Shown here piece by piece: positions 37,361 to 54,340 of a stretch of DNA of 54,340 nucleotides. The notes beneath the pieces were generated by a model that saw nothing but the letters and a program-made list of their open reading frames with translations, searched no databases and was not told the DNA's origin. Location: positions 1-54,340 of the forward strand of contig JAEOUH010000022.1 in assembly GCA_016839365.1 (NCBI GenBank). Direction: 5' to 3'. The first letter of the stretch is position 1; each line of letters starts with the position of its first letter. The translations under genes and the position numbers were made by a program. This DNA comes from Candidatus Hermodarchaeota archaeon. GTDB lineage: Archaea > Asgardarchaeota > Hermodarchaeia > Hermodarchaeales > Hermodarchaeaceae.

Positions 37361-39100
37361 CTATTCAGTGCGACCAACCCGGTTGGTTGCCGCCTTCCGT
37401 TGGAACTGTGAATCGTAGAGCTCTTGCACATGTTGGATGGTGTCAGCTTCATTCGGATCTTTATCATAGCGTAGTCGTTTAATTCGTGCGAAGCGAAGCG
37501 CCATGCCGGACTTGTACGTAGGGCTTTGTTGAATCTCATCATATTCAACTTCGACCATAATCCGTGGGTGTACTGTGACAATGCCCCCACGTTGTTCAAT
37601 CTTAAGATCCAGGAGATGCTGGGTAATCTCTTCAAATTCCGCATCCGTTAGCCCCTTGAAGGTTTTTCCAAGCATGTGAAACTCTCCAGTTTCAGGGTCC
37701 TGCGCGGCAAGATGATAGTCACTCAGCCATCGATGTCGTCGCCCCGTTCCCCATTCAGCTGCAATAATCACCAGGTCAAGGGTTTCCATACTTTGTTTAA
37801 CCTTCAACCAAACCTTTCCTCGTTTACCTGGCTGATAGGTACTGTCTAAGCGTTTTGCAACAAGACCCTCATGCCCAGCCTCGATGGCCTTATCAAAAAA
37901 CGATTGGGCCTTTGAGAAATCGGAGGTCACAAGTTGTTCAACTAGGTTAACAGCGCCACTAACCTTCTCGAGGCGCTTTCGACGGACTTGGTAGGGTGAG
38001 TCAATGAGGACATTTCCGTCTTCCATTAATAAGTCAAACAGGTACAAGGTTACAGGAATTTCTGCAATCATTTCTTCAACGTTGTGAACCCGTCGGAACC
38101 GTCGCATTAGATATTGGAAGGGATAAGGACGTCCGTCAGGTCCTTGTGACAGCACTTCCCCTTCAAGGATACAGCTTTGTAAACTAACTTGGTTGCCAAC
38201 TAATTCTACCAGATCAGGAAGGCTTTCCGTGACCTCGGTCAACCGGCGACTGTAAATGCGTATCTGGGTCTGGTTGACAGCCCGTTGTAGGTGAATCTGA
38301 ACACGGGCGCCATCCAGCTTCATTTCAAAAGCCGATGTTCCATCATGAATTTTCAGGGCATCTTTGACATCTTCGGCTTGTGCGGCCAACATAGGAAGCA
38401 AGGGAACGAACGCGCAAAGCTCCACCTTTTCCAACCCTTCAGAGCCCTCATGAAAAGCCCTCCGTGTTACCTCACCAATATTACCTGTGAGCATATTCGC
38501 ACGGCGAACCAAGTCCAGAGGTATATTCAGCGTTCGGGCGATTGCACTTTCCAACATTCCAGCACTGAAACCTATCCTTTGATCCCCCACAAGCAGTTTT
38601 GCGATATACTTCGCCTCTAGCGGTGAGGCACGTGTGAATAAGGCTCGGAGTAATGTGGTTTTTCGTTTTCGGGACCCCGGGCCCTGCGCATCTGCGATTT
38701 CGGTAAAAGTGGAATGGACATCCTGTATTGTCAAAGGCGTTGTAAACAATGTCGATTGCCGGATAGCTCCCGAACGAAGATACAATTGGTATATAACTTC
38801 ACCAATATCTCCTGATTGTGCAAAGAGTTCATTTAACAATTCCCGCGATGGGTGAAGAAGCTCCTGGAGAATCTGATTGAGGGCTTTCCAATCAAGAGCC
38901 AACGTCCGTTGGCTAGTCCGTGGAAAAGGACGCCCAATAAGGAGTAAGGCCCCAATTTCAGTCTCATCAACCGATAAATTTGCCAGGAACGCCCCAGCCA
39001 GATCCATTTTTTCTAAACGACCCGAGGTTCCCATAATAGCCTCAGAAACATCTGCCAAGACCTGAAACGGAGTTGCGGGAGTAGTAACCGCCTTCGACAT
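37361..39100 (-). CDS. lig: ATP-dependent DNA ligase
   Basis: EMKLDGAR adenylation motif, LEGEV, EGLVAK, WLKVK, ALRFAR..LRYDK. Confidence 0.96.
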   Translation of the reverse strand: MSKAVTTPATPFQVLADVSEAIMGTSGRLEKMDLAGAFLANLSVDETEIGALLLIGRPFPRTSQRTLALDWKALNQILQELLHPSRELLNELFAQSGDIGEVIYQLYLRSGAIRQSTLFTTPLTIQDVHSTFTEIADAQGPGSRKRKTTLLRALFTRASPLEAKYIAKLLVGDQRIGFSAGMLESAIARTLNIPLDLVRRANMLTGNIGEVTRRAFHEGSEGLEKVELCAFVPLLPMLAAQAEDVKDALKIHDGTSAFEMKLDGARVQIHLQRAVNQTQIRIYSRRLTEVTESLPDLVELVGNQVSLQSCILEGEVLSQGPDGRPYPFQYLMRRFRRVHNVEEMIAEIPVTLYLFDLLMEDGNVLIDSPYQVRRKRLEKVSGAVNLVEQLVTSDFSKAQSFFDKAIEAGHEGLVAKRLDSTYQPGKRGKVWLKVKQSMETLDLVIIAAEWGTGRRHRWLSDYHLAAQDPETGEFHMLGKTFKGLTDAEFEEITQHLLDLKIEQRGGIVTVHPRIMVEVEYDEIQQSPTYKSGMALRFARIKRLRYDKDPNEADTIQHVQELYDSQFQRKAATNRVGRTE

Positions 39101-39200
39101 CAATAGCCCCTTCTTTTCCTCAAAATCTTGCATTCCTACAAGCTTAAAAAGTGTGCCTTGATACATCCATGGTAACTTCCAATTACGTAGGTTCTAAAAA

Positions 39201-39539
39201 ATGAAAGTCCATGAATTAACTTCCGCATCCCGAAGTGTTAACATTCGGTTGCGTATCCTTTCCTTAGAGCCCGTTCGAGATGTGGAGACACGCTATGGCA
39301 AAGCCCGAGTGGCCACGGCTCAAGCGGGTGATGAAACTGGCACGATCAAGCTCTCATTATGGAACGATGATATCGACATGGTCGATGAAGGAGCCATTGT
39401 TGAAGTTGAAAACGGGTTCATCAAAACGTTTCGTGGAGAAATGGAACTATCTGCAGGACGATATGGAACCATCTCACTAGTTGATGATCCAGAGTTTCCG
39501 TCACGGGAAGAAATTATGAGTAAGCATCCTGGTGAATAA
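39201..39539 (+). CDS. ssb: Single OB-fold single-stranded DNA-binding protein
   Basis: GDETGTIKLSLW, VENGFIKTFRGEMELSAGRYG. Confidence 0.85.
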   Translation: MKVHELTSASRSVNIRLRILSLEPVRDVETRYGKARVATAQAGDETGTIKLSLWNDDIDMVDEGAIVEVENGFIKTFRGEMELSAGRYGTISLVDDPEFPSREEIMSKHPGE

Positions 39540-39580
39540 GCTAACGCTTCAGGTCTAATAGTGTTTGAGGAAGACTGTAA

Positions 39581-40417
39581 TTGTTTATTGATCAATTCTT
39601 TGCCTGGTTACAGGCTGTAGATGCGTGGATTGAAGGCCTCATGTGGCTCCTAATCTCATGGGTCCATGCCTTAGGTCCTCTTGGCGTCTTCATCGGTGTA
39701 ATGATTGAGACCTTTATCGCACCGATTCCTTCACCCTTAGTTCCAATGGCAGCGGGAGCCATTCTAACCATTGGGTTAGATCCGGTGCAAGCGCTTCTTG
39801 TCATCCTGTTTAGCGTCATGTTTGTTGGAGCCCTTGCAGCTACTATTGGATCGTTCTTTGCCTATGGCATCGCTTACTTTGGTGGCTACCCCATCATTGA
39901 ACGATATGGCAAATATCTTGGGACTTCAATTGAGGAAATTGAATATACACGACAAAGTTTGGAGAAGTCTTCACGGGATGAAATCTTCTTATTCACTGCC
40001 CGTGCGATCCCAGTTATTCCCCTCTCAGTAGTCTCGTTATTGTATGGAGCCATTCGATCGGATCCAAAACGTTATACCCTCCTCACGTTCTTGGGTTGCT
40101 TACCGCGGTATCTAATTCTGGGCATCTCGGGGTGGCTCTTAGGATTAGTTTTACTCAATATCATTGATTTCTTCGAAACGGTTATCCTGGCATTTCTCCT
40201 CATCTTCTTTGTCGGTTATGTGCTTTACCGGATTGTTATCCGCCGGCGATCAAAAAAGATACAGGCAGCGATAAAAAAGAAAGCACCAGAGTCAGACAAT
40301 CAAACTAGCCTTCAGAGTGGGGATCACCCACAACAGCTGGTCGTAACTCGAAGAAAAACATCACCTTACAGCCCTGTCTTTGGAGATCAGCTTGGAGAGC
40401 TGCAGCACGACCCTTAG
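39581..40417 (+). CDS. DedA/VTT (SNARE-associated) membrane protein
   Basis: ETFIAPIPS, GSFFAYGIA, RAIPVIP. Confidence 0.85.
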   Translation: MFIDQFFAWLQAVDAWIEGLMWLLISWVHALGPLGVFIGVMIETFIAPIPSPLVPMAAGAILTIGLDPVQALLVILFSVMFVGALAATIGSFFAYGIAYFGGYPIIERYGKYLGTSIEEIEYTRQSLEKSSRDEIFLFTARAIPVIPLSVVSLLYGAIRSDPKRYTLLTFLGCLPRYLILGISGWLLGLVLLNIIDFFETVILAFLLIFFVGYVLYRIVIRRRSKKIQAAIKKKAPESDNQTSLQSGDHPQQLVVTRRKTSPYSPVFGDQLGELQHDP

Positions 40418-40589
40418 CGTCGTGAATGGATTCATATAATGGTGAAACACAGATCGGTGTGGTCTCTCCTTCAGGAGTGATACATCTGAAATCCTCGGGA
40501 ACCTTTGCAGGGGCAGGTAACCGCGAGGATACTCGGAACTTTCCATCGAGAATACTGAGCCAAATTTCAGGATACTTACACTCTGTCAT
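40305..40589 (-). CDS. Possible small hypothetical protein overlapping the DedA tail
   Basis: 94-aa globular-looking ORF filling an otherwise empty gap; overlaps DedA by 113 nt on the opposite strand. Confidence 0.4.
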   Translation of the reverse strand: MTECKYPEIWLSILDGKFRVSSRLPAPAKVPEDFRCITPEGETTPICVSPLYESIHDAKGRAAALQADLQRQGCKVMFFFELRPAVVGDPHSEG

Positions 40590-40684
40590 AAGCGCCACAA
40601 GCAAGCAAAGTAAGTAAGAACTAATAAGCCTGAGTAATTGTTAATGGTTTCGGAACAAAGAGAATAACTAGGTTGGTGTTGTGA

Positions 40685-41341
40685 TTGACGCATCAAATTG
40701 TGGGTGTCGATGAAGCAGGTCGAGGTCCTGTCATCGGACCCCTAGTGATTGCTGGAGTTGTAATAATTTCGTCCCAAGAAGATACTCTTATTGAATGGGG
40801 GATTCGGGATTCAAAGACGTTAAGCTCTCGTCGCCGTGAATTGCTTGCGCAGCGGGTTTATAACCTCGCCAATAGAGTCGAAGTGCTAGAGATTAGTGCA
40901 AAGGAAATTGACGCTGAACGAAAAAAGAAGCGTAGTTTGAACGTCTTAGAGGCAGAATGGATGGCGAAGGTTTTGAACAAACTCAAATGGGATGTTGCAT
41001 ATGTAGATGCCTCGGATGTGAATGCTGAACGTTATGGGCGAATTATTTTTTCACAGTTAACCACACCGAGAAAGATCGTCAGCGAACACAAAGCTGATTC
41101 AACATACCCTATCGTTGCCGCAGCCTCAATTATCGCAAAGGTTCGCCGCGACCAGCGGATACGCGAATTCCATCAAAAGTATGGAGACTTTGGTAGCGGC
41201 TATCCAAATGATCCCAAGACAAGACGATTCCTTGTTGGTTGGATTCGAAAGAATAGCGAGTTTCCTGAAATCGTACGAAAATCGTGGGAAACGGCACGTG
41301 AAATCAGTGCCACAAATCGTCAAGGATCCCTTACTGATTGA
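40685..41341 (+). CDS. rnhB: Ribonuclease HII
   Basis: GVDEAGRGPVIGP, DSK, EHKAD, AAASIIAKVRRD, GSGYP. Confidence 0.96.
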   Translation: MTHQIVGVDEAGRGPVIGPLVIAGVVIISSQEDTLIEWGIRDSKTLSSRRRELLAQRVYNLANRVEVLEISAKEIDAERKKKRSLNVLEAEWMAKVLNKLKWDVAYVDASDVNAERYGRIIFSQLTTPRKIVSEHKADSTYPIVAAASIIAKVRRDQRIREFHQKYGDFGSGYPNDPKTRRFLVGWIRKNSEFPEIVRKSWETAREISATNRQGSLTD

Positions 41342-41384
41342 AGAGCTGTGGATTGAGAATCTAGGTAGCTTTCGCTTATTTTTC

Positions 41385-42875
41385 CTACTTCTTTTCTTTC
41401 TCTTCTTTTTTCTTCTGCTTCTCTTCTTCCTTCCGCTGCTTCTCTTCCTCTTTCAGCCGCTTCTCCTCAGCCTTCCGCGCCTCTTCCTCTTCCTTCTGCT
41501 TCTGCTTCTCCTCAGCCTTCAAACGCTTCTCCTCAGCCTTCAAACGCTTCTCCTCAGCCTTCAAACGCTTCTCCTCAGCCTTCCGCGCCTTCTCTTCTTC
41601 CTTCTGGATCCGCTTCGCTTCTTTCTCATCAACTTCAAGTAACTCAGTGGTTTCTGGAGCTTCTGTCTCAGCAAGTTCAGGAGGTGGAGTCATTTCCGTT
41701 TCCATCTCGGGAAGTTCTTCTTCACCCTCTTCCTTCTTCCGTTTCTTGCGTTCCTTCATCTTCTCACGCATACGCATGTACATCTCACTGAGAAGTTCAA
41801 GATGCCGTTTCGCGATATCTGGATGAATGTCCTTGGCCTCTAAGCGTTCCTGGATACGGAGTACCAGAAACTCAGGGAAAAAGGACTCAAAGTGCACATC
41901 AGCAATTAACATAATCAGGGGGTCATCGTTGGCTGACACCTCAACAGTATCCTCACCCATCTTCGTAATCACTTGCACCTGCTCTAATCGACGCAATACA
42001 TTATCTAGCGATGCTTCCTTCTCAACGACACCAACCAGCTCGGATTTATGTGCGATTTTCCGTCGTAGGGTCTTGGTTACATCATAGATATCAGGATCAA
42101 GCAGCAGCTGGCCAATCATAATCGTATCTTCTTCAGTCCACTGATACTCCTCGAAAAAGCCCTTCACTCGTGTCTCATATTCGGCATACTGTTGTTTGTT
42201 CAAACCGCCACTCTTGGCTAATTTTAGTGATTGTTCAGGTGGAAACCGTGCCCCGAGTAAGTCATTGACTAAAAAGACACAGTTATCAGACACAGCGTTA
42301 ATCCAATCCTCTTCTACTAGCCCACTACGCAATAAGGACAATGTTACCAGACCTAAGTCTGGATAGTGCTTCCCGGTCTGCAGCTCAAGCCATTCTCGTA
42401 ACTCCTCGGCTGAAATCCCACCCCTAGCCAACTTGTGCATGAGTAATCGGGTCTCCTGATCCACGAAGACTTTGGCAAGCCGCTGCTCCACCGACAGCTC
42501 CACCATCCGCTTCAGCTTCTCAAATACTTCACCCAAATACTCCACAAACTCGGGCTCACCAATATTCTCCACAATCTCACTTGACGCAAGCGTCAACCCC
42601 TCCTCATACGCACGTGGCTCCTCATCCAGCTCCATAAACAACATAATACAGAACTGATCACGGCCTCGAAGAATCCCGGTGTAAAAACTACTCACCGCCA
42701 GATTCGTTCCTTCAAGCGTCATCGTGAGAAACCCAGCCTCGGGTTTACCCATCGCATGGGCAGTGAATACTCGCAACATATCATCTTCAGAAACTTCAAG
42801 ATTGCGAGGGTACACCCCAACGATACGAAGTCCGACCTTGTCGTCCCACCTGCATATGCTTAGACCTTTTGGCAT
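41385..42875 (-). CDS. uDENN/NPRL2-like longin protein with winged-helix repeats and K/E-rich tail
   Basis: N-terminal CRWDDKVGLRIVGVYP resembles the uDENN/NPRL2 beta-hairpin; wHTH-like GISAEELREWL..LLRSGLV; ATG at 42875. Confidence 0.6.
   Translation of the reverse strand: MPKGLSICRWDDKVGLRIVGVYPRNLEVSEDDMLRVFTAHAMGKPEAGFLTMTLEGTNLAVSSFYTGILRGRDQFCIMLFMELDEEPRAYEEGLTLASSEIVENIGEPEFVEYLGEVFEKLKRMVELSVEQRLAKVFVDQETRLLMHKLARGGISAEELREWLELQTGKHYPDLGLVTLSLLRSGLVEEDWINAVSDNCVFLVNDLLGARFPPEQSLKLAKSGGLNKQQYAEYETRVKGFFEEYQWTEEDTIMIGQLLLDPDIYDVTKTLRRKIAHKSELVGVVEKEASLDNVLRRLEQVQVITKMGEDTVEVSANDDPLIMLIADVHFESFFPEFLVLRIQERLEAKDIHPDIAKRHLELLSEMYMRMREKMKERKKRKKEEGEEELPEMETEMTPPPELAETEAPETTELLEVDEKEAKRIQKEEEKARKAEEKRLKAEEKRLKAEEKRLKAEEKQKQKEEEEARKAEEKRLKEEEKQRKEEEKQKKKEEKEKK
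41504..41583. repeat. 21-bp tandem repeat, about 3.8 copies, encoding KAEEKRL on the minus strand
   Basis: GCTTCTCCTCAGCCTTCAAAC three times plus a 17-nt partial copy. Confidence 0.95.
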
Positions 42876-42926
42876 ACTTTCAAACTCCCGTTTATTCAAA
42901 TAGGTTCTGTAGCTATGGGTTTTAAA

Positions 42927-42949
42927 GTGACCCGTTAACACTCGGTTTT
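42927..42949. promoter_or_regulatory. Shared motif GTGACCCGTT-N5-TCGGTTTT (copy 2)
   Basis: Near-identical to 22943..22964; directly precedes a TTTAAAA box on the minus strand. Confidence 0.4.
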
Positions 42950-43060
42950 GACTATCTGGATTCCCGTATTTAACTTGTTTGTCGGTTCCGGAATTCCGAG
43001 GTTTCAAGTTGTAGCTTTCTGCAATTTTTCGCAAGAATAATGAGGATTTTTGAGTTTTCG

Positions 43061-43930
43061 CTAGTCTGTGGTTGCTTCTGCCACAGCACCGAGAATGATT
43101 TTGTAAAGGATTTCACGGTAGCGGGGATCGATGGCGACTAATCCGTAGGCTTGCACTCCGAGGATGCGTTGAACGAGTTTAGGGGCGAGGGCACCGGGAA
43201 GGTCTTGTTTGTTGGCGATGGACCAGACTATGGAAGATGGAGAGTTTTTGCGGACGATTTCGAGGATGTCGCGGGTTTCGAGGACGTTTTTGAGGGTGGA
43301 GTCGGTGACGAGTAAGACGGCGTCGGCGTTGCGGAGGTAGTAGTTCCAGAGGCTGCGGAAGCGGTCTTGGCCAGCAAAATCCCAGACGGCGAGTTCGTAG
43401 GGACCGAAGCGGACGCCCTGGAGTGTTTCGATGTCAACGGCGATGGTGGGGTAGTAGTCGCCGGGGATGCTGTCGGCGGTGAGAAGTTTGAGCATGGTGG
43501 ATTTGCCGACCCCGCCTTGGCCGAGGAGGCAGATTTTGAGCATGGTGACAATGACATTGTCAAGTTCGGTCGCAAAGCCTTTGAAGGCTTCGCCAAGGGG
43601 GACGGGTTTTTGGATATAGGCGTCAATTTCGTGGTTGAATTTGGTAATAAGGAGTTCCTGGGTTTTTTTGAGTGTGCCTTTGATTTTTTCATCTTCGTCA
43701 CTCATGTCGACGGCAAAAACAAGGAGGAGATGGGTGCCGGCTTCTTGGTAGATGAACTTGATGTTTTTGACATGGATAGGGAGATCGACTTTGCTGCCAA
43801 GTTCGGATTCGAAGTGTTTGTAGGTGGCAAGGAATTCCTGTCGTTCTTCGGAGGTGATTTCCACTGACCAGTATTGGCGGTGGAAGGCAAGGCGGCCGTC
43901 GCGGGTCATGATGAAGATGTTGTGAATCAT
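43061..43930 (-). CDS. Longin domain - Arf-like small GTPase fusion
   Basis: MIHNIFIMTRDGRL longin start; GQGGVGKST, PTI, WDFAGQDRFRSLWNYY, NKQDL; ATG at 43930. Confidence 0.88.
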   Translation of the reverse strand: MIHNIFIMTRDGRLAFHRQYWSVEITSEERQEFLATYKHFESELGSKVDLPIHVKNIKFIYQEAGTHLLLVFAVDMSDEDEKIKGTLKKTQELLITKFNHEIDAYIQKPVPLGEAFKGFATELDNVIVTMLKICLLGQGGVGKSTMLKLLTADSIPGDYYPTIAVDIETLQGVRFGPYELAVWDFAGQDRFRSLWNYYLRNADAVLLVTDSTLKNVLETRDILEIVRKNSPSSIVWSIANKQDLPGALAPKLVQRILGVQAYGLVAIDPRYREILYKIILGAVAEATTD

Positions 43931-43952
43931 CGAATGGTGTTTCTCCTTTTGG

Positions 43953-44972
43953 TTATTCGGCACGGGTGATGGCTTTTTCTTGAGGTGTAGCGCGTCGCCG
44001 TCGTTGTTTGTATTGGGGGAGCTTTTTTTCATCCGAACTCAGGAGGTTGCGGAGCTCCCGGTAGTTGCGACGCAGTGATGTACGTGAACAACCCACAAGT
44101 TCGATTATATCGTTTTCGGGTATAGAATCCCCGGTTTGTTTTGCACTGTAGTAGGCAATGGAAGCGGCGATGATTGGTCGTGGATGCCCTTGGAAGAGAC
44201 CTTCTTGCCCGACATATTCAACGATGTTGTGGGCGTATTCTTCAGTTTCTGGTTTCACCTCCAAGATTGCGAACAGGCGATCGAGGATTGCATGAACTGG
44301 CTCAGTCCAGACACCTGGTTTTGCTTCTTTAAACTTCTGTCGCTCTTGATCGTAGTCTTCGAGGATGCGTTGGATTCCAGCACGGACCAACTGGCGAGCG
44401 TTTGCGAGTTGGTTTTGGCGTTGTCGTCGAATATAACGGGGACATTGGGGGTATCCGGGCATGTCATAGATTGTTAAATAGCATTGTTTCTTAACCACGC
44501 GGCAGAAGGAGGTCATTTTATCGGTCTTAATTGGTCGTTCATAGACGTAGGGACACAGCGATTGGTCGCGTGACCCACCACGACGCTCAATTTTTCTGTA
44601 GCTATCCGAAAGAATTTGCCGATACCGCCGTTTTCTATTTGAAGGGTTCCCGCTTGTTTTTGTTATTCGCTGCAATGTCCTGAGGAGAATTTCCTCATAG
44701 GCGGAGCCCTCTTCTTCAGCCGTAAGAAGCACGAAGAGACAGATATCGTCTTCAACACCATCTAGCAAGAGACGTGTGCAAGCAACTGCTGCACGTTCCT
44801 TAACCTCTTTTGTGGGAAAAACTTGAAAGGTGGTTCCCAAGTCCTGTGGAGCACTGCCATAATACATCATGGACATGTCGCTGACCTGAAAGTCCAAGGA
44901 ACCAGGATACTTGGAGAGTATCTTCAGTCCTTCTTTGGTGTCCCACTGACTAACAACCAGGCCCCGAGGAAT
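43953..44972 (-). CDS. uDENN/longin-like + Cys4 + TFB (TFIIB) C-terminal cyclin-fold fusion; probable ATT start
   Basis: Frame is open upstream of the track start: IPRGLVVSQWDTKEGLKILSKYP; Cys cluster CPY..C..C..CPRY; C-terminal GLFQGHPRPIIAASIAYY..VGCSRTSLRRNYREL. Confidence 0.7.
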   Translation of the reverse strand: MPRGLVVSQWDTKEGLKILSKYPGSLDFQVSDMSMMYYGSAPQDLGTTFQVFPTKEVKERAAVACTRLLLDGVEDDICLFVLLTAEEEGSAYEEILLRTLQRITKTSGNPSNRKRRYRQILSDSYRKIERRGGSRDQSLCPYVYERPIKTDKMTSFCRVVKKQCYLTIYDMPGYPQCPRYIRRQRQNQLANARQLVRAGIQRILEDYDQERQKFKEAKPGVWTEPVHAILDRLFAILEVKPETEEYAHNIVEYVGQEGLFQGHPRPIIAASIAYYSAKQTGDSIPENDIIELVGCSRTSLRRNYRELRNLLSSDEKKLPQYKQRRRRATPQEKAITRAE

Positions 44973-45122
44973 GATGAGTCACCTTTCATTACAGACAGAG
45001 CTGTAGTTTACGAACTTGTCGATTGGCTTAAGTCAAGTTTGGAAACGCCACAGAAAAAGGTTTTTGCATATCTGAAGGTTCCGTAAATTCATTCCGAGAT
45101 ACTGAAACCACTATAAAACACA

Positions 45123-46289
45123 CTACGGGGTTCTACGCTTCCAAAGCAGAAATACTAAAACGACAGAAATACCCAGAATCGTGACTCCCAACATGAAAGG
45201 GAATAGCTGGTCCCACATCGATGCAGGAAGCCTAATTGGATCACCAATGATTGCCGGGTAGATGAACTCATCGAAATATGCATAGTATTCCTCGGAGCCA
45301 TAGGGGGCGGCACCAAAAGCAAGAACAATATCTTCTTGGGGAAGTACAAAAACCCGCATACCCCCTGCACCCCTCATTGAATAACCGGAGATGGGAATAT
45401 CAATCCACCATTGATAGCCATACCCTTCCCCATAGCTAAAGACAAAGTGGGGAATTGTGCACTCCACAATCCATTCATCGGGGAGAAGTTGTGAGGCCCC
45501 CCATGTGCCGTTATTCAGATACAGAAAAGCGATTTTTGCCAAGTCACGTAAGCTCAAGCTCAGACCCGCCATACCTGTCGTGACTCCTTGCGGATCATCA
45601 CCCCATTCGTATGTTGAAATGCCCATGGGTGTGAACAGTCGATTATGCACAAGGGTTTCCATTGACAACCCTGTTGTTTCCGTAATAATTGCCGATAAGA
45701 GATGGCTGCAGCCACCATTGTAATTCCAGAAGTCACCGGGCTCATTCGACATGGGTGAATCGAGGAGATATTGGACCCAATCAGGTTTTGTCCCCAGTCC
45801 AAAATCACTGCGTTCCAAACCAGAGGACATGGTAAGAAGATGCCATATTGACATGGTGGATTTCCAGGGATCCGGGTTTTGAATTGTTCGATTTGGAAAG
45901 TAATCAAGAACGGAATCGTTAACACTGGCCACTAATCCATCTGCTAGAGCTAGCCCAAAGGCAGCAGCTGAGACACTCTTTGTGCAGGAATAAATGCGCC
46001 AGAGGTGATTTGGACTTATTCCCGGGGCGTATGCCTCAAATAGAATATATCCGTTGCGAATGAGAAGGAAACCTTGCACGTTGTCAGTGGAAGATATTGT
46101 GTGCCAGAATGCTTGTAGCAGGGTAGTATTCATTCCTTGTACTTCAGGTTGAACACCGCGCCAACCCGTTGTGGGCCAATAATCTCTTTGGAAATCTGTA
46201 TTGTGTAGGACGCTTGGTTCTGCGCTGATGGCTAGGGGAGTCAAGAGTAGGAAGGTAAACAACAAGAACCATTTTGATTGGAGAACCAT
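45123..46289 (-). CDS. Membrane-anchored serine hydrolase (AmpC/beta-lactamase-like)
   Basis: Signal peptide, SCTK (SxxK), HLLTMSSG, YGYQWW, C-terminal TM + KRR. Confidence 0.88.
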   Translation of the reverse strand: MVLQSKWFLLFTFLLLTPLAISAEPSVLHNTDFQRDYWPTTGWRGVQPEVQGMNTTLLQAFWHTISSTDNVQGFLLIRNGYILFEAYAPGISPNHLWRIYSCTKSVSAAAFGLALADGLVASVNDSVLDYFPNRTIQNPDPWKSTMSIWHLLTMSSGLERSDFGLGTKPDWVQYLLDSPMSNEPGDFWNYNGGCSHLLSAIITETTGLSMETLVHNRLFTPMGISTYEWGDDPQGVTTGMAGLSLSLRDLAKIAFLYLNNGTWGASQLLPDEWIVECTIPHFVFSYGEGYGYQWWIDIPISGYSMRGAGGMRVFVLPQEDIVLAFGAAPYGSEEYYAYFDEFIYPAIIGDPIRLPASMWDQLFPFMLGVTILGISVVLVFLLWKRRTP

Positions 46290-46342
46290 TATTGAATCCG
46301 ACCAAAGGGTGAATGACTATTCGATTTTTGGTATTTTTCTAT

Positions 46343-47329
46343 TTATGGACAACGTATGGCTATTTGCCATCGTTTCCGTGTTCGAAGATCAATGGCAAGC
46401 AGTACAACAAAGAGTACCACAAAGCTACCTCCAATTAGGGCTAGAATTCCCATGTACAGTTCGAGGGGCATTCCGGGAGAAGTGTTAACGAGCCAACTAG
46501 ATACTTTGTACATCAGATTCCATTCAGAATCAGGATCTTGGAGATTCTGGTATGTGGGCCAGTGGGTAATGTGATCTTGGCTCAGCCCATCTCGATCGTT
46601 TCCTTCTTCGAACTCAGTGTGTGGGCTAGACAACATCACAGTTCCTTGTCCATATCGGAAGGCAATCACCCCGAGTAATTCAGTATCAGCATAGGACAGT
46701 ATTGGGATAATGTTGGTATTGTCGTGGAATTCGAAGTAGGATGCCCCCGAGGTGAAGACCATATAGGAAGGTGGTTCTTCTGAGAGGTCTGGACCAGTGA
46801 ACGCTTGGTTCACGCGCATCTCTGTAATTTTAAGTTCACCAGTATGATGATCATGACATTGAACGCCTGAAGGACCAACATAATGCAAAGTGGCATCAAT
46901 TATTCCTAAACTGGTGACAACAAATACCGTGCCGTGGCAGACACTGAACAAAGATCCACCAGTGGCTAAGAATTGTCGGATACGTTCCTTTCCCAATGGT
47001 GCTAATTCGCGTTGATAGGCGCTAGGGGCGAATGCCGGTAAGACGAGAAGATCGAAATAGCGTAGGGCACCCTGCTGGATGGCAGTACCATTGAGATGTT
47101 CTACCGTGGCATTCATCCACCGGAACATATGCGAACAAGCCGTGAAGCTATAGTTGTCATTCCGTTGCACATCATAGATAGCTACACGCGCCTGAGTCAT
47201 ATCAGGAGAAGATTGGGCCAAGGTGTCACTAGAATCAAACGGCAATACTGAGGGAGCAACAGCCACCATCAGCAGAAGAAAGAGTAGTAAAGTGCTTTTC
47301 CTTAGTAGCCACGGAATATAACTTGGCAA
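46343..47329 (-). CDS. Membrane-anchored BPL_N / class I glutamine amidotransferase-like protein
   Basis: IRQFLATGGSLFSVCHG (Cys), SPHTE (His-Glu), signal peptide, C-terminal TM. Confidence 0.75.
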   Translation of the reverse strand: MPSYIPWLLRKSTLLLFLLLMVAVAPSVLPFDSSDTLAQSSPDMTQARVAIYDVQRNDNYSFTACSHMFRWMNATVEHLNGTAIQQGALRYFDLLVLPAFAPSAYQRELAPLGKERIRQFLATGGSLFSVCHGTVFVVTSLGIIDATLHYVGPSGVQCHDHHTGELKITEMRVNQAFTGPDLSEEPPSYMVFTSGASYFEFHDNTNIIPILSYADTELLGVIAFRYGQGTVMLSSPHTEFEEGNDRDGLSQDHITHWPTYQNLQDPDSEWNLMYKVSSWLVNTSPGMPLELYMGILALIGGSFVVLFVVLLAIDLRTRKRWQIAIRCP

Positions 47330-47488
47330 TGTTCAAAATCTCCTTGAAGTAGTCTTATGAAAAAAACCGTAGAAGGGTGATTTATGGTCTTGGATACCGG
47401 CTAGGGAGAAAATTCTGAAAACAAACCTAGCTATTGCATCTTTTATGAACCTAATAATTCAGAAAACGACAGTTTCCATCATATTGGT

Positions 47489-48064
47489 TTAGCAGAGGAA
47501 TTCGGATTTTAAGAGGCCAAAAAAGACAAGACCGTAACGGGATCCGTTTTCAATTCGTGCTTCCCGAAAATGACCCTCTCGTTTAAACCCAAGTCGTTCG
47601 GCGAGTTTGATGCTTCGCAAATTTGTATCGCGTGTAATCACGATAACTTTGTGAGCTTGTAAATTGTTGAAGAGGAATGTTAGAGAACGGTTTGCGGCTT
47701 CGGTAGCCAAGCCTTTTCCGAGAACTCCTGCATCAAGGAACCAACCAAGTTCAAAGGAAGGTACATTCCATTGATTCGGCTCGATCCAAATCTCACCAAT
47801 ATAGAGGGAATCTTTCTTCCTCCAGATACCCATGACAAATCTTTTCCTATCCTCCCACTCCTCAGCGTGTTGGCGAACCTTGACCTCTGCGGCATCAATG
47901 TCTTTGATTTTCGCAACCTCTTCCACATTCGGGAGGAGAAACTGCCGATTGTTATTCCTTTCCAGTAAAGCAAGGAGCGCTTTTCCATCTCCCGCTTTAT
48001 ATTTCCTGACAAGGAGCCTGCCTGTTTCTAAGGACTCAGAAAGCTTCGGATATGCCGGATCCAT
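47489..48064 (-). CDS. GNAT N-acetyltransferase, RimJ/RimL family
   Basis: LETGRLLVR, ELGWFL..GKGLATEA, NLRSIKLAERLGFKREG. Confidence 0.9.
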   Translation of the reverse strand: MDPAYPKLSESLETGRLLVRKYKAGDGKALLALLERNNNRQFLLPNVEEVAKIKDIDAAEVKVRQHAEEWEDRKRFVMGIWRKKDSLYIGEIWIEPNQWNVPSFELGWFLDAGVLGKGLATEAANRSLTFLFNNLQAHKVIVITRDTNLRSIKLAERLGFKREGHFREARIENGSRYGLVFFGLLKSEFLC

Positions 48065-53929: not shown

Positions 53930-54229
53930 TTACAATGATTTAGATTTTATGTGCAGCTCTTGTACCAGCTGTTTATAGCGGCTTTGAATGGTATTGGCGG
54001 CCACCCCAATCACTTGGCTAATATCCCCCTGGGTCCGTCTTTCACCTTCCAAGATACAGGCAATATACAACGCCGCCGCCATGAGGCTTTCTGGCGCCTT
54101 CCGTGCCGTCAACCCCGCCTGCTCCGCATCCACCAGAATCGCTGCCGCACGCACCCGCGTCCGCGATGACAACTCCAACTCACCCACATACGGAGACAAA
54201 TCATACTTGGAAATTCTAGGACTTTTCAT
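53930..54229 (-). CDS. Stand-alone TFB/TFIIB C-terminal cyclin-fold protein
   Basis: GLTARKAPESLMAAALYIACILEGERRTQGDISQVIGVAANTIQSRYKQL; ATG at 54229 after GGGGTGA, TTTATAA upstream; no zinc ribbon or first cyclin repeat. Confidence 0.8.
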   Translation of the reverse strand: MKSPRISKYDLSPYVGELELSSRTRVRAAAILVDAEQAGLTARKAPESLMAAALYIACILEGERRTQGDISQVIGVAANTIQSRYKQLVQELHIKSKSL

Positions 54230-54340
54230 CCAATTCACCCCACCCATCGGGAGTGAAGCTTCCTTATAAACCGTCATATTTCTCCCTTTCGAAAAACAAG
54301 TTATCCTACAAATAGGATTCACAAGATGAGAAGAATTCGG

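Follow-up and report, generated by a model that had tools for sequence, protein, structure and literature searches.

The window analysed here, the whole 54,340-nt stretch of contig JAEOUH010000022.1 from a Candidatus Hermodarchaeota archaeon (assembly GCA_016839365.1), contains at 43953-44972 on the minus strand a gene whose 339-aa product is predicted to combine an N-terminal longin domain, a four-cysteine (Cys4) module, a basic helix and a single cyclin repeat homologous to the second repeat of the archaeal transcription factor TFB. This gene forms a conserved trio with those of a small GTPase and of a second, paralogous longin protein, and we tentatively read its product as the subunit that faces transcription or DNA in a small-GTPase module, specific to Hermodarchaeial archaea, that consists of three proteins. 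The fusion itself is real, lineage-specific and universally retained in its family. Each of the genomes of one GTDB family (18/18; two genera, with records titled Hermodarchaeota) carries one copy of it; it was absent at E ≤ 1e-10 from 381 genomes of 32 other families in the Asgard phylum and amounts library-wide to one 50%-identity cluster plus fragments. Because the 18 genomes come from independent assemblies, the fusion is not an assembly artefact. Neither of the two doubts that accompanied the original prediction, that the fusion might be unique to this contig and that its C-terminus might not be a cyclin fold, was borne out. Locus comparisons refer to a set of 19, that is, the window plus 18 related loci, 15 from genus 1 and four from genus 2.

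Modeling of the fusion protein with AlphaFold2 (AF2) on a 29-sequence family alignment (mean predicted local distance difference test score, pLDDT, of 79.4; predicted template modeling score, pTM, of 0.48) yielded a ββαβββαα domain at residues 1-131, a pair of short strands at the Cys cluster (139-177), a long helix (178-213), a five-helix bundle (223-313) and a disordered tail. These parts map to the window as follows:

44580..44972, minus strand: longin domain, residues 1-131, with the motif W12-D13-x3-G17-L18 (AF2 topology ββαβββαα, VIA and hhalign)
44442..44579, minus strand: linker and Cys4 module, residues 132-177, RRGGSRD..CPY-x14-C-x6-C-x12-CPRY, with invariant Cys
44334..44441, minus strand: basic helix conserved across the family, residues 178-213, with the consensus RYIRRQRxxQLxNARxxVRAGIQRIL, modeled by AF2 as a single long helix (9 K+R vs 4 D+E)
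44034..44306, minus strand: single cyclin repeat, residues 223-313, homologue of TFB repeat 2 with the helix-turn-helix (HTH) GCSRTSLRRNYREL (Pfam, NCBIfam, family profile, hhalign and VIA)
43953..44033, minus strand: disordered basic tail, residues 314-339 (pLDDT below 50)

The original prediction had assigned about 90 residues near the C-terminus to the second cyclin repeat of TFB, and the comparisons that we made support this. Alignment of the family to 22 TFB sequences with hhalign (98.6%, E 1.2e-15) placed residues 227-317 on TFB columns 220-310 of 326, with no alignment N-terminal of residue 227, and the NCBIfam TFB model similarly aligned residues 229-311 to its positions 224-306 of 312. 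The suggested profile search against PF00382 left the window's own protein below threshold (E 0.03) and matched 21/29 family members, the best at E 4.7e-6. Run against 1.84 billion proteins, the family profile retrieved ~130 matches outside its own family (best E 3e-11), all through profile positions ~200-295, the C-terminal domain; eight of these were checked in Pfam, and 8/8 carried TFIIB repeats, three of them together with a TFIIB zinc ribbon. The genome (2.2 Mb) encodes five canonical full TFBs, and in every one the profile gave repeat 2 a higher score (8-23 bits) than repeat 1 (1-6 bits). In structural comparisons with VIA, the modeled repeat superimposed on Pyrococcus woesei TFB (1ais_B, chain residues 1171-1294) with Z 13.3 and a root-mean-square deviation of 1.3 Å over 89 residues, and many cyclins reached Z 11-12. 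By sequence and modeled structure, the C-terminus is thus a cyclin fold homologous to the CLR/HTH2 domain of TFB and closest to TFB repeat 2.

The rest of TFB is missing, as the original prediction had also stated for the zinc ribbon, the B-reader and the first cyclin repeat, and on this Pfam, hhalign and AF2 agree. The zinc-ribbon model PF08271 (Zn_Ribbon_TF) found no match in the protein, which contains no CxxC pairs; no second cyclin repeat was detected, Pfam and hhalign both recognizing a single TFIIB stretch, and residues 178-213, modeled as a single long helix, did not align to TFB repeat 1 in hhalign. The HTH reads GCSRTSLRRNYREL here and (A/G)(R/V)TEVTVRNRYKEL in TFB. Its recognition helix is invariant in the family (G-C-S-x-T-x-L-R-R-N), as is the Arg aligned with the arginine of TFB VRNRY. 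Relative to P. woesei TFB (1ais/1d3u), the protein keeps the terminal HTH and the signature R-(R/N)-(N/R)-Y-(K/R)-E-L; it differs in lacking the zinc ribbon, the B-reader/linker and the first repeat and in being fused to a longin and a Cys4 module, and cannot be a general initiation factor. Sulfolobus TFB3 is a truncated TFB paralogue that acts as a regulator, retaining the TFB N-terminal part and lacking the DNA-binding cyclin core. Both would be partial TFBs in a regulatory role, with the difference that the Hermodarchaeial protein keeps only the C-terminal repeat, joined to unrelated domains. In the canonical factor, CLR/HTH2 enters the major groove at the upstream B recognition element (BREup) and both repeats flank or contact the TBP stirrup (PMC4581349), in agreement with the BRE-binding HTH and TBP contact that the original prediction had attributed to repeat 2.

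The second line of evidence is the operon. Wherever a related locus reaches far enough, the fusion gene is followed by a gene for a longin-Arf-like GTPase and by that of a 496-aa third protein:

43061..43930, minus strand: operon partner 1, GTPase of 289 aa from ATG 43930, with an N-terminal longin and an Arf/Rag-like G domain (Pfam)
41385..42875, minus strand: operon partner 2, 496 aa from ATG 42875, with a paralogous longin, then a helical region resembling a winged helix, then a tail rich in K/E

The GTPase gene starts 22 nt past the TAA of the fusion gene, behind AAGGAG. Its product matches Arf (1e-19), Roc (2e-20), Clat_adaptor_s (5e-4) and also Ras in Pfam; the G domain carries the Arf-type motifs GQGGVGKST, WDFAGQ and NKQD, and the N-terminus is a sigma-adaptin-like longin. 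The third protein is far more conserved than the fusion protein (71-93% identity across the Hermodarchaeial family), its helical part shows weak winged-helix similarity (ArsR/SmtB, MarR and TFE, E 0.03-0.3), and an ESM Atlas search with it returned unnamed Asgard clusters alone. As a family (370 globular residues) it is Asgard-wide, being present in 296/400 genomes and 65/85 genera, often in two or three copies, with W10, D11 and G15 of the motif W10-D11-x3-G15 invariant throughout.

The longin-like (uDENN/longin) N-terminus proposed in the original prediction likewise held up. Against the full PDB, VIA ranked the modeled domain with a Lokiarchaeal longin (8yqg_B, Z 13.2), NPRL2 (8fw5_B, 12.4) and yeast Npr2 (10.7), followed by Lst4 (10.6), FLCN (10.5) and C9orf72 (9.0); SNARE longins such as VAMP7 scored similarly. 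Foldseek returned NPRL2 (2.9e-4) and a chain of the FNIP2/FLCN complex (8.8e-4) as top matches. On the basis of the model, the N-terminus is a longin fold of the NPRL2/FLCN/C9orf72 structural type. At the sequence level, it aligned with the Asgard-wide family of the third gene over 127 columns (hhalign 98.2%, E 2.8e-14), the alignment ending at residue 136; identity to the third-gene longin was 22-31% in tblastn, and both share the signature MPxG...WDxKxG. The fusion protein lacks the ~240-aa helical, winged-helix-like C-terminal part of this family.

Loci of the third-gene family from other Asgard families place the association with the GTPase before the fusion. A homologue of the GTPase lies within about 3 kb, mostly just downstream, in 15/27 such loci (G-domain identity 39-52%), three of the 27 have a second, short longin of this type alongside, and the Cys4-cyclin part was found in 0/27. 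The linkage in 15/27 indicates that the longin-GTPase connection is old and predates the fusion; the second longin subunit, bearing the Cys4 module and the TFB repeat, is an addition or remodeling made by Hermodarchaeia. A genome search with the third-gene profile showed that genus-1 genomes mostly hold just two members of the longin family, which we take to be the two encoded in this operon; a complement of two fits an obligate pair. In a maximum-likelihood tree, the longins of the fusion proteins form one very long, fully supported branch, and its placement inside the family is compatible with a recent duplication as well as with an old paralogy; between the two genera, these longins have diverged about four times as much as the partner.

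Variants of this arrangement were observed as well. In genus 2 and in one genus-1 locus (L010, L015-L018), a second longin-Arf-like GTPase paralogue (41-44% identity) sits directly upstream of the fusion, giving the order GTPase-fusion-GTPase-partner. In another Asgard family, short longin-only paralogues of the partner (L043:6514-6861; L049:7345-7719, minus strand) adjoin a full-length member and display the full W-D-x3-G-P as in C9orf72, which makes them candidate heterodimer partners. The K/E-rich tail of the third protein (window 41385-41640, minus strand; EEKRLKAEEK repeats) looks like a single long charged helix; its length is highly variable by locus, and it is nearly gone in genus 2.

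Between the longin and the TFB repeat lies the most constrained part of the fusion protein, as judged from mean pairwise identities of 0.72 for the basic helix and 0.70 for the Cys4 module, compared with 0.65 in the cyclin repeat, 0.51 in the longin and ~0.3 in linker and tail. No member of the family alignment departs from C140, C157, C164 or C177, and the spacing of these four cysteines, CPY-x14-C-x6-C-x12-CPRY, is exactly that of the original prediction. AF2 placed two short β-strands here at moderate confidence. There are no CxxC knuckles, which makes a classical zinc ribbon unlikely. Relatives of the module were found neither in the PDB (profile search, chance-level matches with E above 0.4) nor in Pfam nor in the ESM Atlas (no usable match), and no similarity to a known metal-sensor fold emerged from these three sources. 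A sub-threshold Pfam match to Rab15_effector (E 0.007 to 0.012, 15 bits vs a cut-off of 27, 3/9 members) was treated as chance. Past the repeat, the tail is variable yet basic, and most members keep the end motif T/S-R-A-E before the TAA stop.

The start of the gene is itself unusual. The coordinates given in the original prediction proved right, with the conserved N-terminus IPRGLVxSxWDxKxG beginning at an ATT codon, and two elements define it:

44970..44972, minus strand: non-canonical ATT start codon, ATC or ATT in 19/19 loci
44979..44984, minus strand: Shine-Dalgarno-like AGGTGA, 6 nt before the start, its last 3 bases being the in-frame TGA that closes the upstream frame

The frame that closes at 43953 is open as far as TGA 44979-44981, and the sole start that the open reading frame list offered for it was TTG 44897. 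The 25 codons from 44972 to that TTG, IPRGLVVSQWDTKEGLKILSKYPGS, are nevertheless homologous to the N-terminus of the third-gene protein, MPKGLSICRWDDKVGLRIVGVYP, and the ATC/ATT codon aligns with Met1 of this paralogue (IPRG vs MPKG), whose own gene starts with ATG or TTG across loci. Across the 19 loci, an in-frame stop immediately precedes the ATC/ATT codon in most cases, no canonical in-frame start follows the upstream stop before the conserved coding sequence begins, and third-codon-position or synonymous changes mark the stretch 3' of ATT as coding. The Shine-Dalgarno core GGTG is present in 19/19, within the full hexamer AGGTGA in 14 and AGGTGT in 5. Judged by this comparative evidence, the gene has a conserved near-cognate AUU/AUC start served by a strong Shine-Dalgarno site, a rare and well-supported case of such initiation in archaea. 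As a consequence, most homologues in databases are annotated without their first 20-45 residues; the NCBI name for the family is 'cyclin family protein'. Escherichia coli infC, which encodes IF3, offers a parallel in its near-cognate start behind a good ribosome-binding site, the differences being the archaeal context and the absence here of any sign of autoregulation. An infC-type AUU start behind such a site implies low or regulated translation. Partner-family genes of other Asgard lineages (L042, L050, L052, L057, L064 and L068) also seem to have no ATG at the conserved (M)PxG start (IPRG, LPQG, KMKG), and unusual starts may be common in that family.

By gene adjacency, two paralogous longins encoded beside an Arf/Rag-like GTPase recall NPRL2-NPRL3 (GATOR1), FLCN-FNIP and C9orf72-SMCR8. 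A 2025 survey defined the eukaryotic longins of the GTPase-activating protein (GAP) type by a GP motif before strand 2 and an Arg finger, with W33-D34 of C9orf72 four residues before G38-P39, and reported 'FLCN/SMCR8-type' longins in Asgard archaea (PMC12290439). The W-D-x3-G of both the fusion protein and its partner reproduces exactly the spacing of W33-D34...G38. On the other hand, the GP position reads G17-L18 in the fusion protein and G15-L16 in the Hermodarchaeial partner, G-P occurring only in some short paralogues elsewhere; the Cys4 module, basic helix and TFB repeat stand in place of a DENN- or NPRL2-type domain; and the GTPase of this operon itself carries a longin domain. The RGRDQ loop of the partner, a candidate Arg finger, is invariant within Hermodarchaeial genomes and not conserved across the wider family; R60 of the fusion protein is invariant, and neither longin's alignment contains a family-wide Arg finger. 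With the fold and the WD feature matching and the defining catalytic features not, we do not assign the protein to the eukaryotic GAP-longin families. NPRL2-like longins fused to two-component signaling domains have been described in Asgard archaea (Liu et al., preprint 10.1101/2020.10.19.343400). They resemble the present case in joining a longin to a signal-output domain within a narrow Asgard lineage, and the operon's third gene belongs to an Asgard-wide family of this general kind; the output here differs, consisting of a TFB piece and an orphan Cys4 module. Asgard GTPases are generally not found in operons with longin or roadblock genes, so that their pairings are hard to predict (Tran et al., PMC10933270). 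The literature searched, in which 'TFBS' matches crowded part of the results, yielded no description of a longin-TFB fusion. As far as we could find, the longin-Cys4-TFB-repeat fusion is unpublished, and represents a variant within the known theme of Asgard longin/GTPase modules.

In the mechanism toward which we tentatively lean, the longin of the fusion protein would pair with that of the third protein, as in NPRL2-NPRL3, FLCN-FNIP and C9orf72-SMCR8, and the pair would form a platform binding the co-encoded GTPase. The nucleotide state of the latter would decide whether the Cys4/basic-helix/HTH half engages DNA at a BRE-like site or a TBP-promoter complex. Since it has no zinc ribbon, B-reader or first repeat, the fusion protein could not recruit RNA polymerase and would serve as a competitor, repressor or tether and not in initiation. 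For the Cys4 module, metal binding (Zn or Fe-S) is probable, and a redox or metal signal may enter through it; the weak start codon probably holds the level of the protein below that of its partners. A DNA or transcription role is favored by the invariant recognition helix and the conserved basic helix, which are the protein's most constrained parts, and by the TFB-aligned Arg, the basic tail and the conserved operon, whose GTPase hints at, without proving, a link between a GTP switch and gene regulation. The original prediction had envisaged occupancy of BRE/TBP by a regulated repressor, or tethering of promoters to a longin complex; such a putative role is plausible because the recognition helix is invariant, a basic helix precedes the repeat and the GTPase operon is conserved. 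We consider unlikely the more ambitious version, in which an Arf/Rag-like GTPase would directly control promoter occupancy through a longin pair, one subunit of which bears a BRE-reading TFB repeat and a metal-binding sensor module, with the AUU/AUC start setting stoichiometry. This would be a prokaryotic pathway from a GTP switch to transcription initiation and, if true, a functional analogue of the eukaryotic nutrient-signaling logic of Rag/FLCN/GATOR1 that ends in transcription control.

Several observations weigh against a transcription-facing role or the assembly proposed for it. The pTM leaves the inter-domain arrangement of the fusion protein uncertain, and the AF2 model of the third protein, obtained on a shallow alignment, reached a pLDDT of 48 and was not used. 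The recognition helix starts with SRTS vs TEVT in TFB, and BRE specificity therefore does not follow from the homology. With 9 K+R vs 13 D+E, the cyclin repeat carries a net negative charge, and cyclin folds often serve protein binding alone. Finally, the absence of a family-wide Arg finger, together with GL at the GP position, does not support GAP chemistry of the eukaryotic type.

Some of these points lend themselves to a different account, doubtful in our judgment yet the best placed of the alternatives, in which the protein would be purely a GTPase-regulator subunit. It would then be an NPRL3/FNIP/C9orf72-like partner in a longin heterodimer working as a GAP, guanine-nucleotide exchange factor or scaffold, and the Cys4 module and cyclin repeat would serve protein assembly only, replacing the ancestral winged-helix part with no contact to DNA or the transcription machinery. 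The C-terminal domains of eukaryotic longin GAP subunits (DENN, the NPRL2 C-terminal domain) indeed make protein contacts (see Liu et al., 10.1101/2020.10.19.343400); the cyclin fold is a general protein-binding scaffold, as the scores of many cyclins in VIA recall, and the acidity of the repeat would suit it. HTH-type folds are, moreover, already in use in the partner family, in its winged-helix-like part. What this account leaves unexplained is that the closest relatives of the repeat in sequence and structure are TFB repeat 2 and not cyclins, that the recognition helix and the VRNRY-aligned Arg are invariant, and that the repeat has a conserved basic helix on one side and a basic tail on the other.

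Less probable still is a metal- or redox-sensing transcription regulator independent of the GTPase, whose Cys4 module would bind Zn or an Fe-S cluster and gate DNA binding by the HTH, the longin serving dimerization only. Four invariant cysteines, accompanied by CP motifs, located in a segment that is among the best conserved and spaced otherwise than in a classical zinc ribbon, would be in keeping with a sensor. Against it stand the strict conservation of the GTPase gene 22 nt downstream, the repeated linkage of this longin family to the same GTPase type across Asgard archaea, and the lack of similarity to known metal-sensor folds in the PDB, Pfam and Atlas. A split or alternative TFB, in which the lone repeat 2 and another partial TFB (e.g., 53930-54322) would rebuild an initiation factor, might be imagined in a genome that has five full TFBs and a divergent TFB-like gene and encodes, 9 kb from the fusion, a single-repeat protein standing alone, but is very improbable given that the family profile fails to detect the stand-alone repeat, that no zinc ribbon or B-reader is encoded nearby and that the neighborhood kept in all loci is the GTPase module and not a TFB fragment.

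The two other TFB-related genes are of separate interest. The stand-alone TFIIB-repeat reading frame at the contig end (53930-54322, minus strand; PF00382 E 4e-15) is not a close relative of the fusion, as its absence from the profile matches indicates, and was dismissed as donor of the repeat. Contig 74 of the same genome (L030; 10588-11595, minus strand) carries a divergent TFB-like gene of 335 aa that encodes a zinc ribbon and scores only weakly for TFIIB repeats; being a zinc-ribbon TFB, it was ruled out as a paralogue of the fusion.

Upstream of the start codon, the 15 genus-1 loci share three near-invariant non-coding blocks, two of which were checked in the window's own genome:

45088..45103, minus strand: leader block AGTATCTCGGAATGAA, ~120 nt before the start codon, near-invariant across the 15 genus-1 loci and unique in its genome
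45051..45065, minus strand: leader block AAAAACCTTTTTCTG, invariant in the genus-1 loci and unique in its genome

Neither block recurs in the genome above control level, which speaks against a regulon motif, and the leader gave no Rfam match. Two readings of AAAAACCTTTTTCTG are conceivable, as a promoter element resembling BRE/TATA or as an anti-Shine-Dalgarno segment; RNAalifold predicted 7 bp between ACCUUUU and the Shine-Dalgarno sequence GGAAGGU, with both sides invariant and hence no covariation. The blocks are missing from three of the four genus-2 loci, where the second GTPase paralogue sits upstream. The wider neighborhood (window 37361-48064) is syntenic in genus 1 and comprises genes for a GNAT protein, a BPL_N-like membrane protein, a beta-lactamase-like membrane protein, the three-gene module, RNase HII (opposite strand), a VTT/DedA-domain protein and an ATP-dependent DNA ligase.

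Small GTPases and longin/roadblock proteins are both numerous in Asgard archaea. The locus described here is a conserved trio of one GTPase and two paralogous longins, of the type that forms GAP complexes in eukaryotic nutrient signaling, and one member of the trio bears a piece of the basal transcription machinery. The host lineage is a close archaeal relative of eukaryotes. If our tentative reading is true, small-GTPase signaling would have been wired to gene control in archaea before organelles existed, and three small soluble proteins would provide a tractable system for the biochemistry of ancestral longin-GTPase modules.

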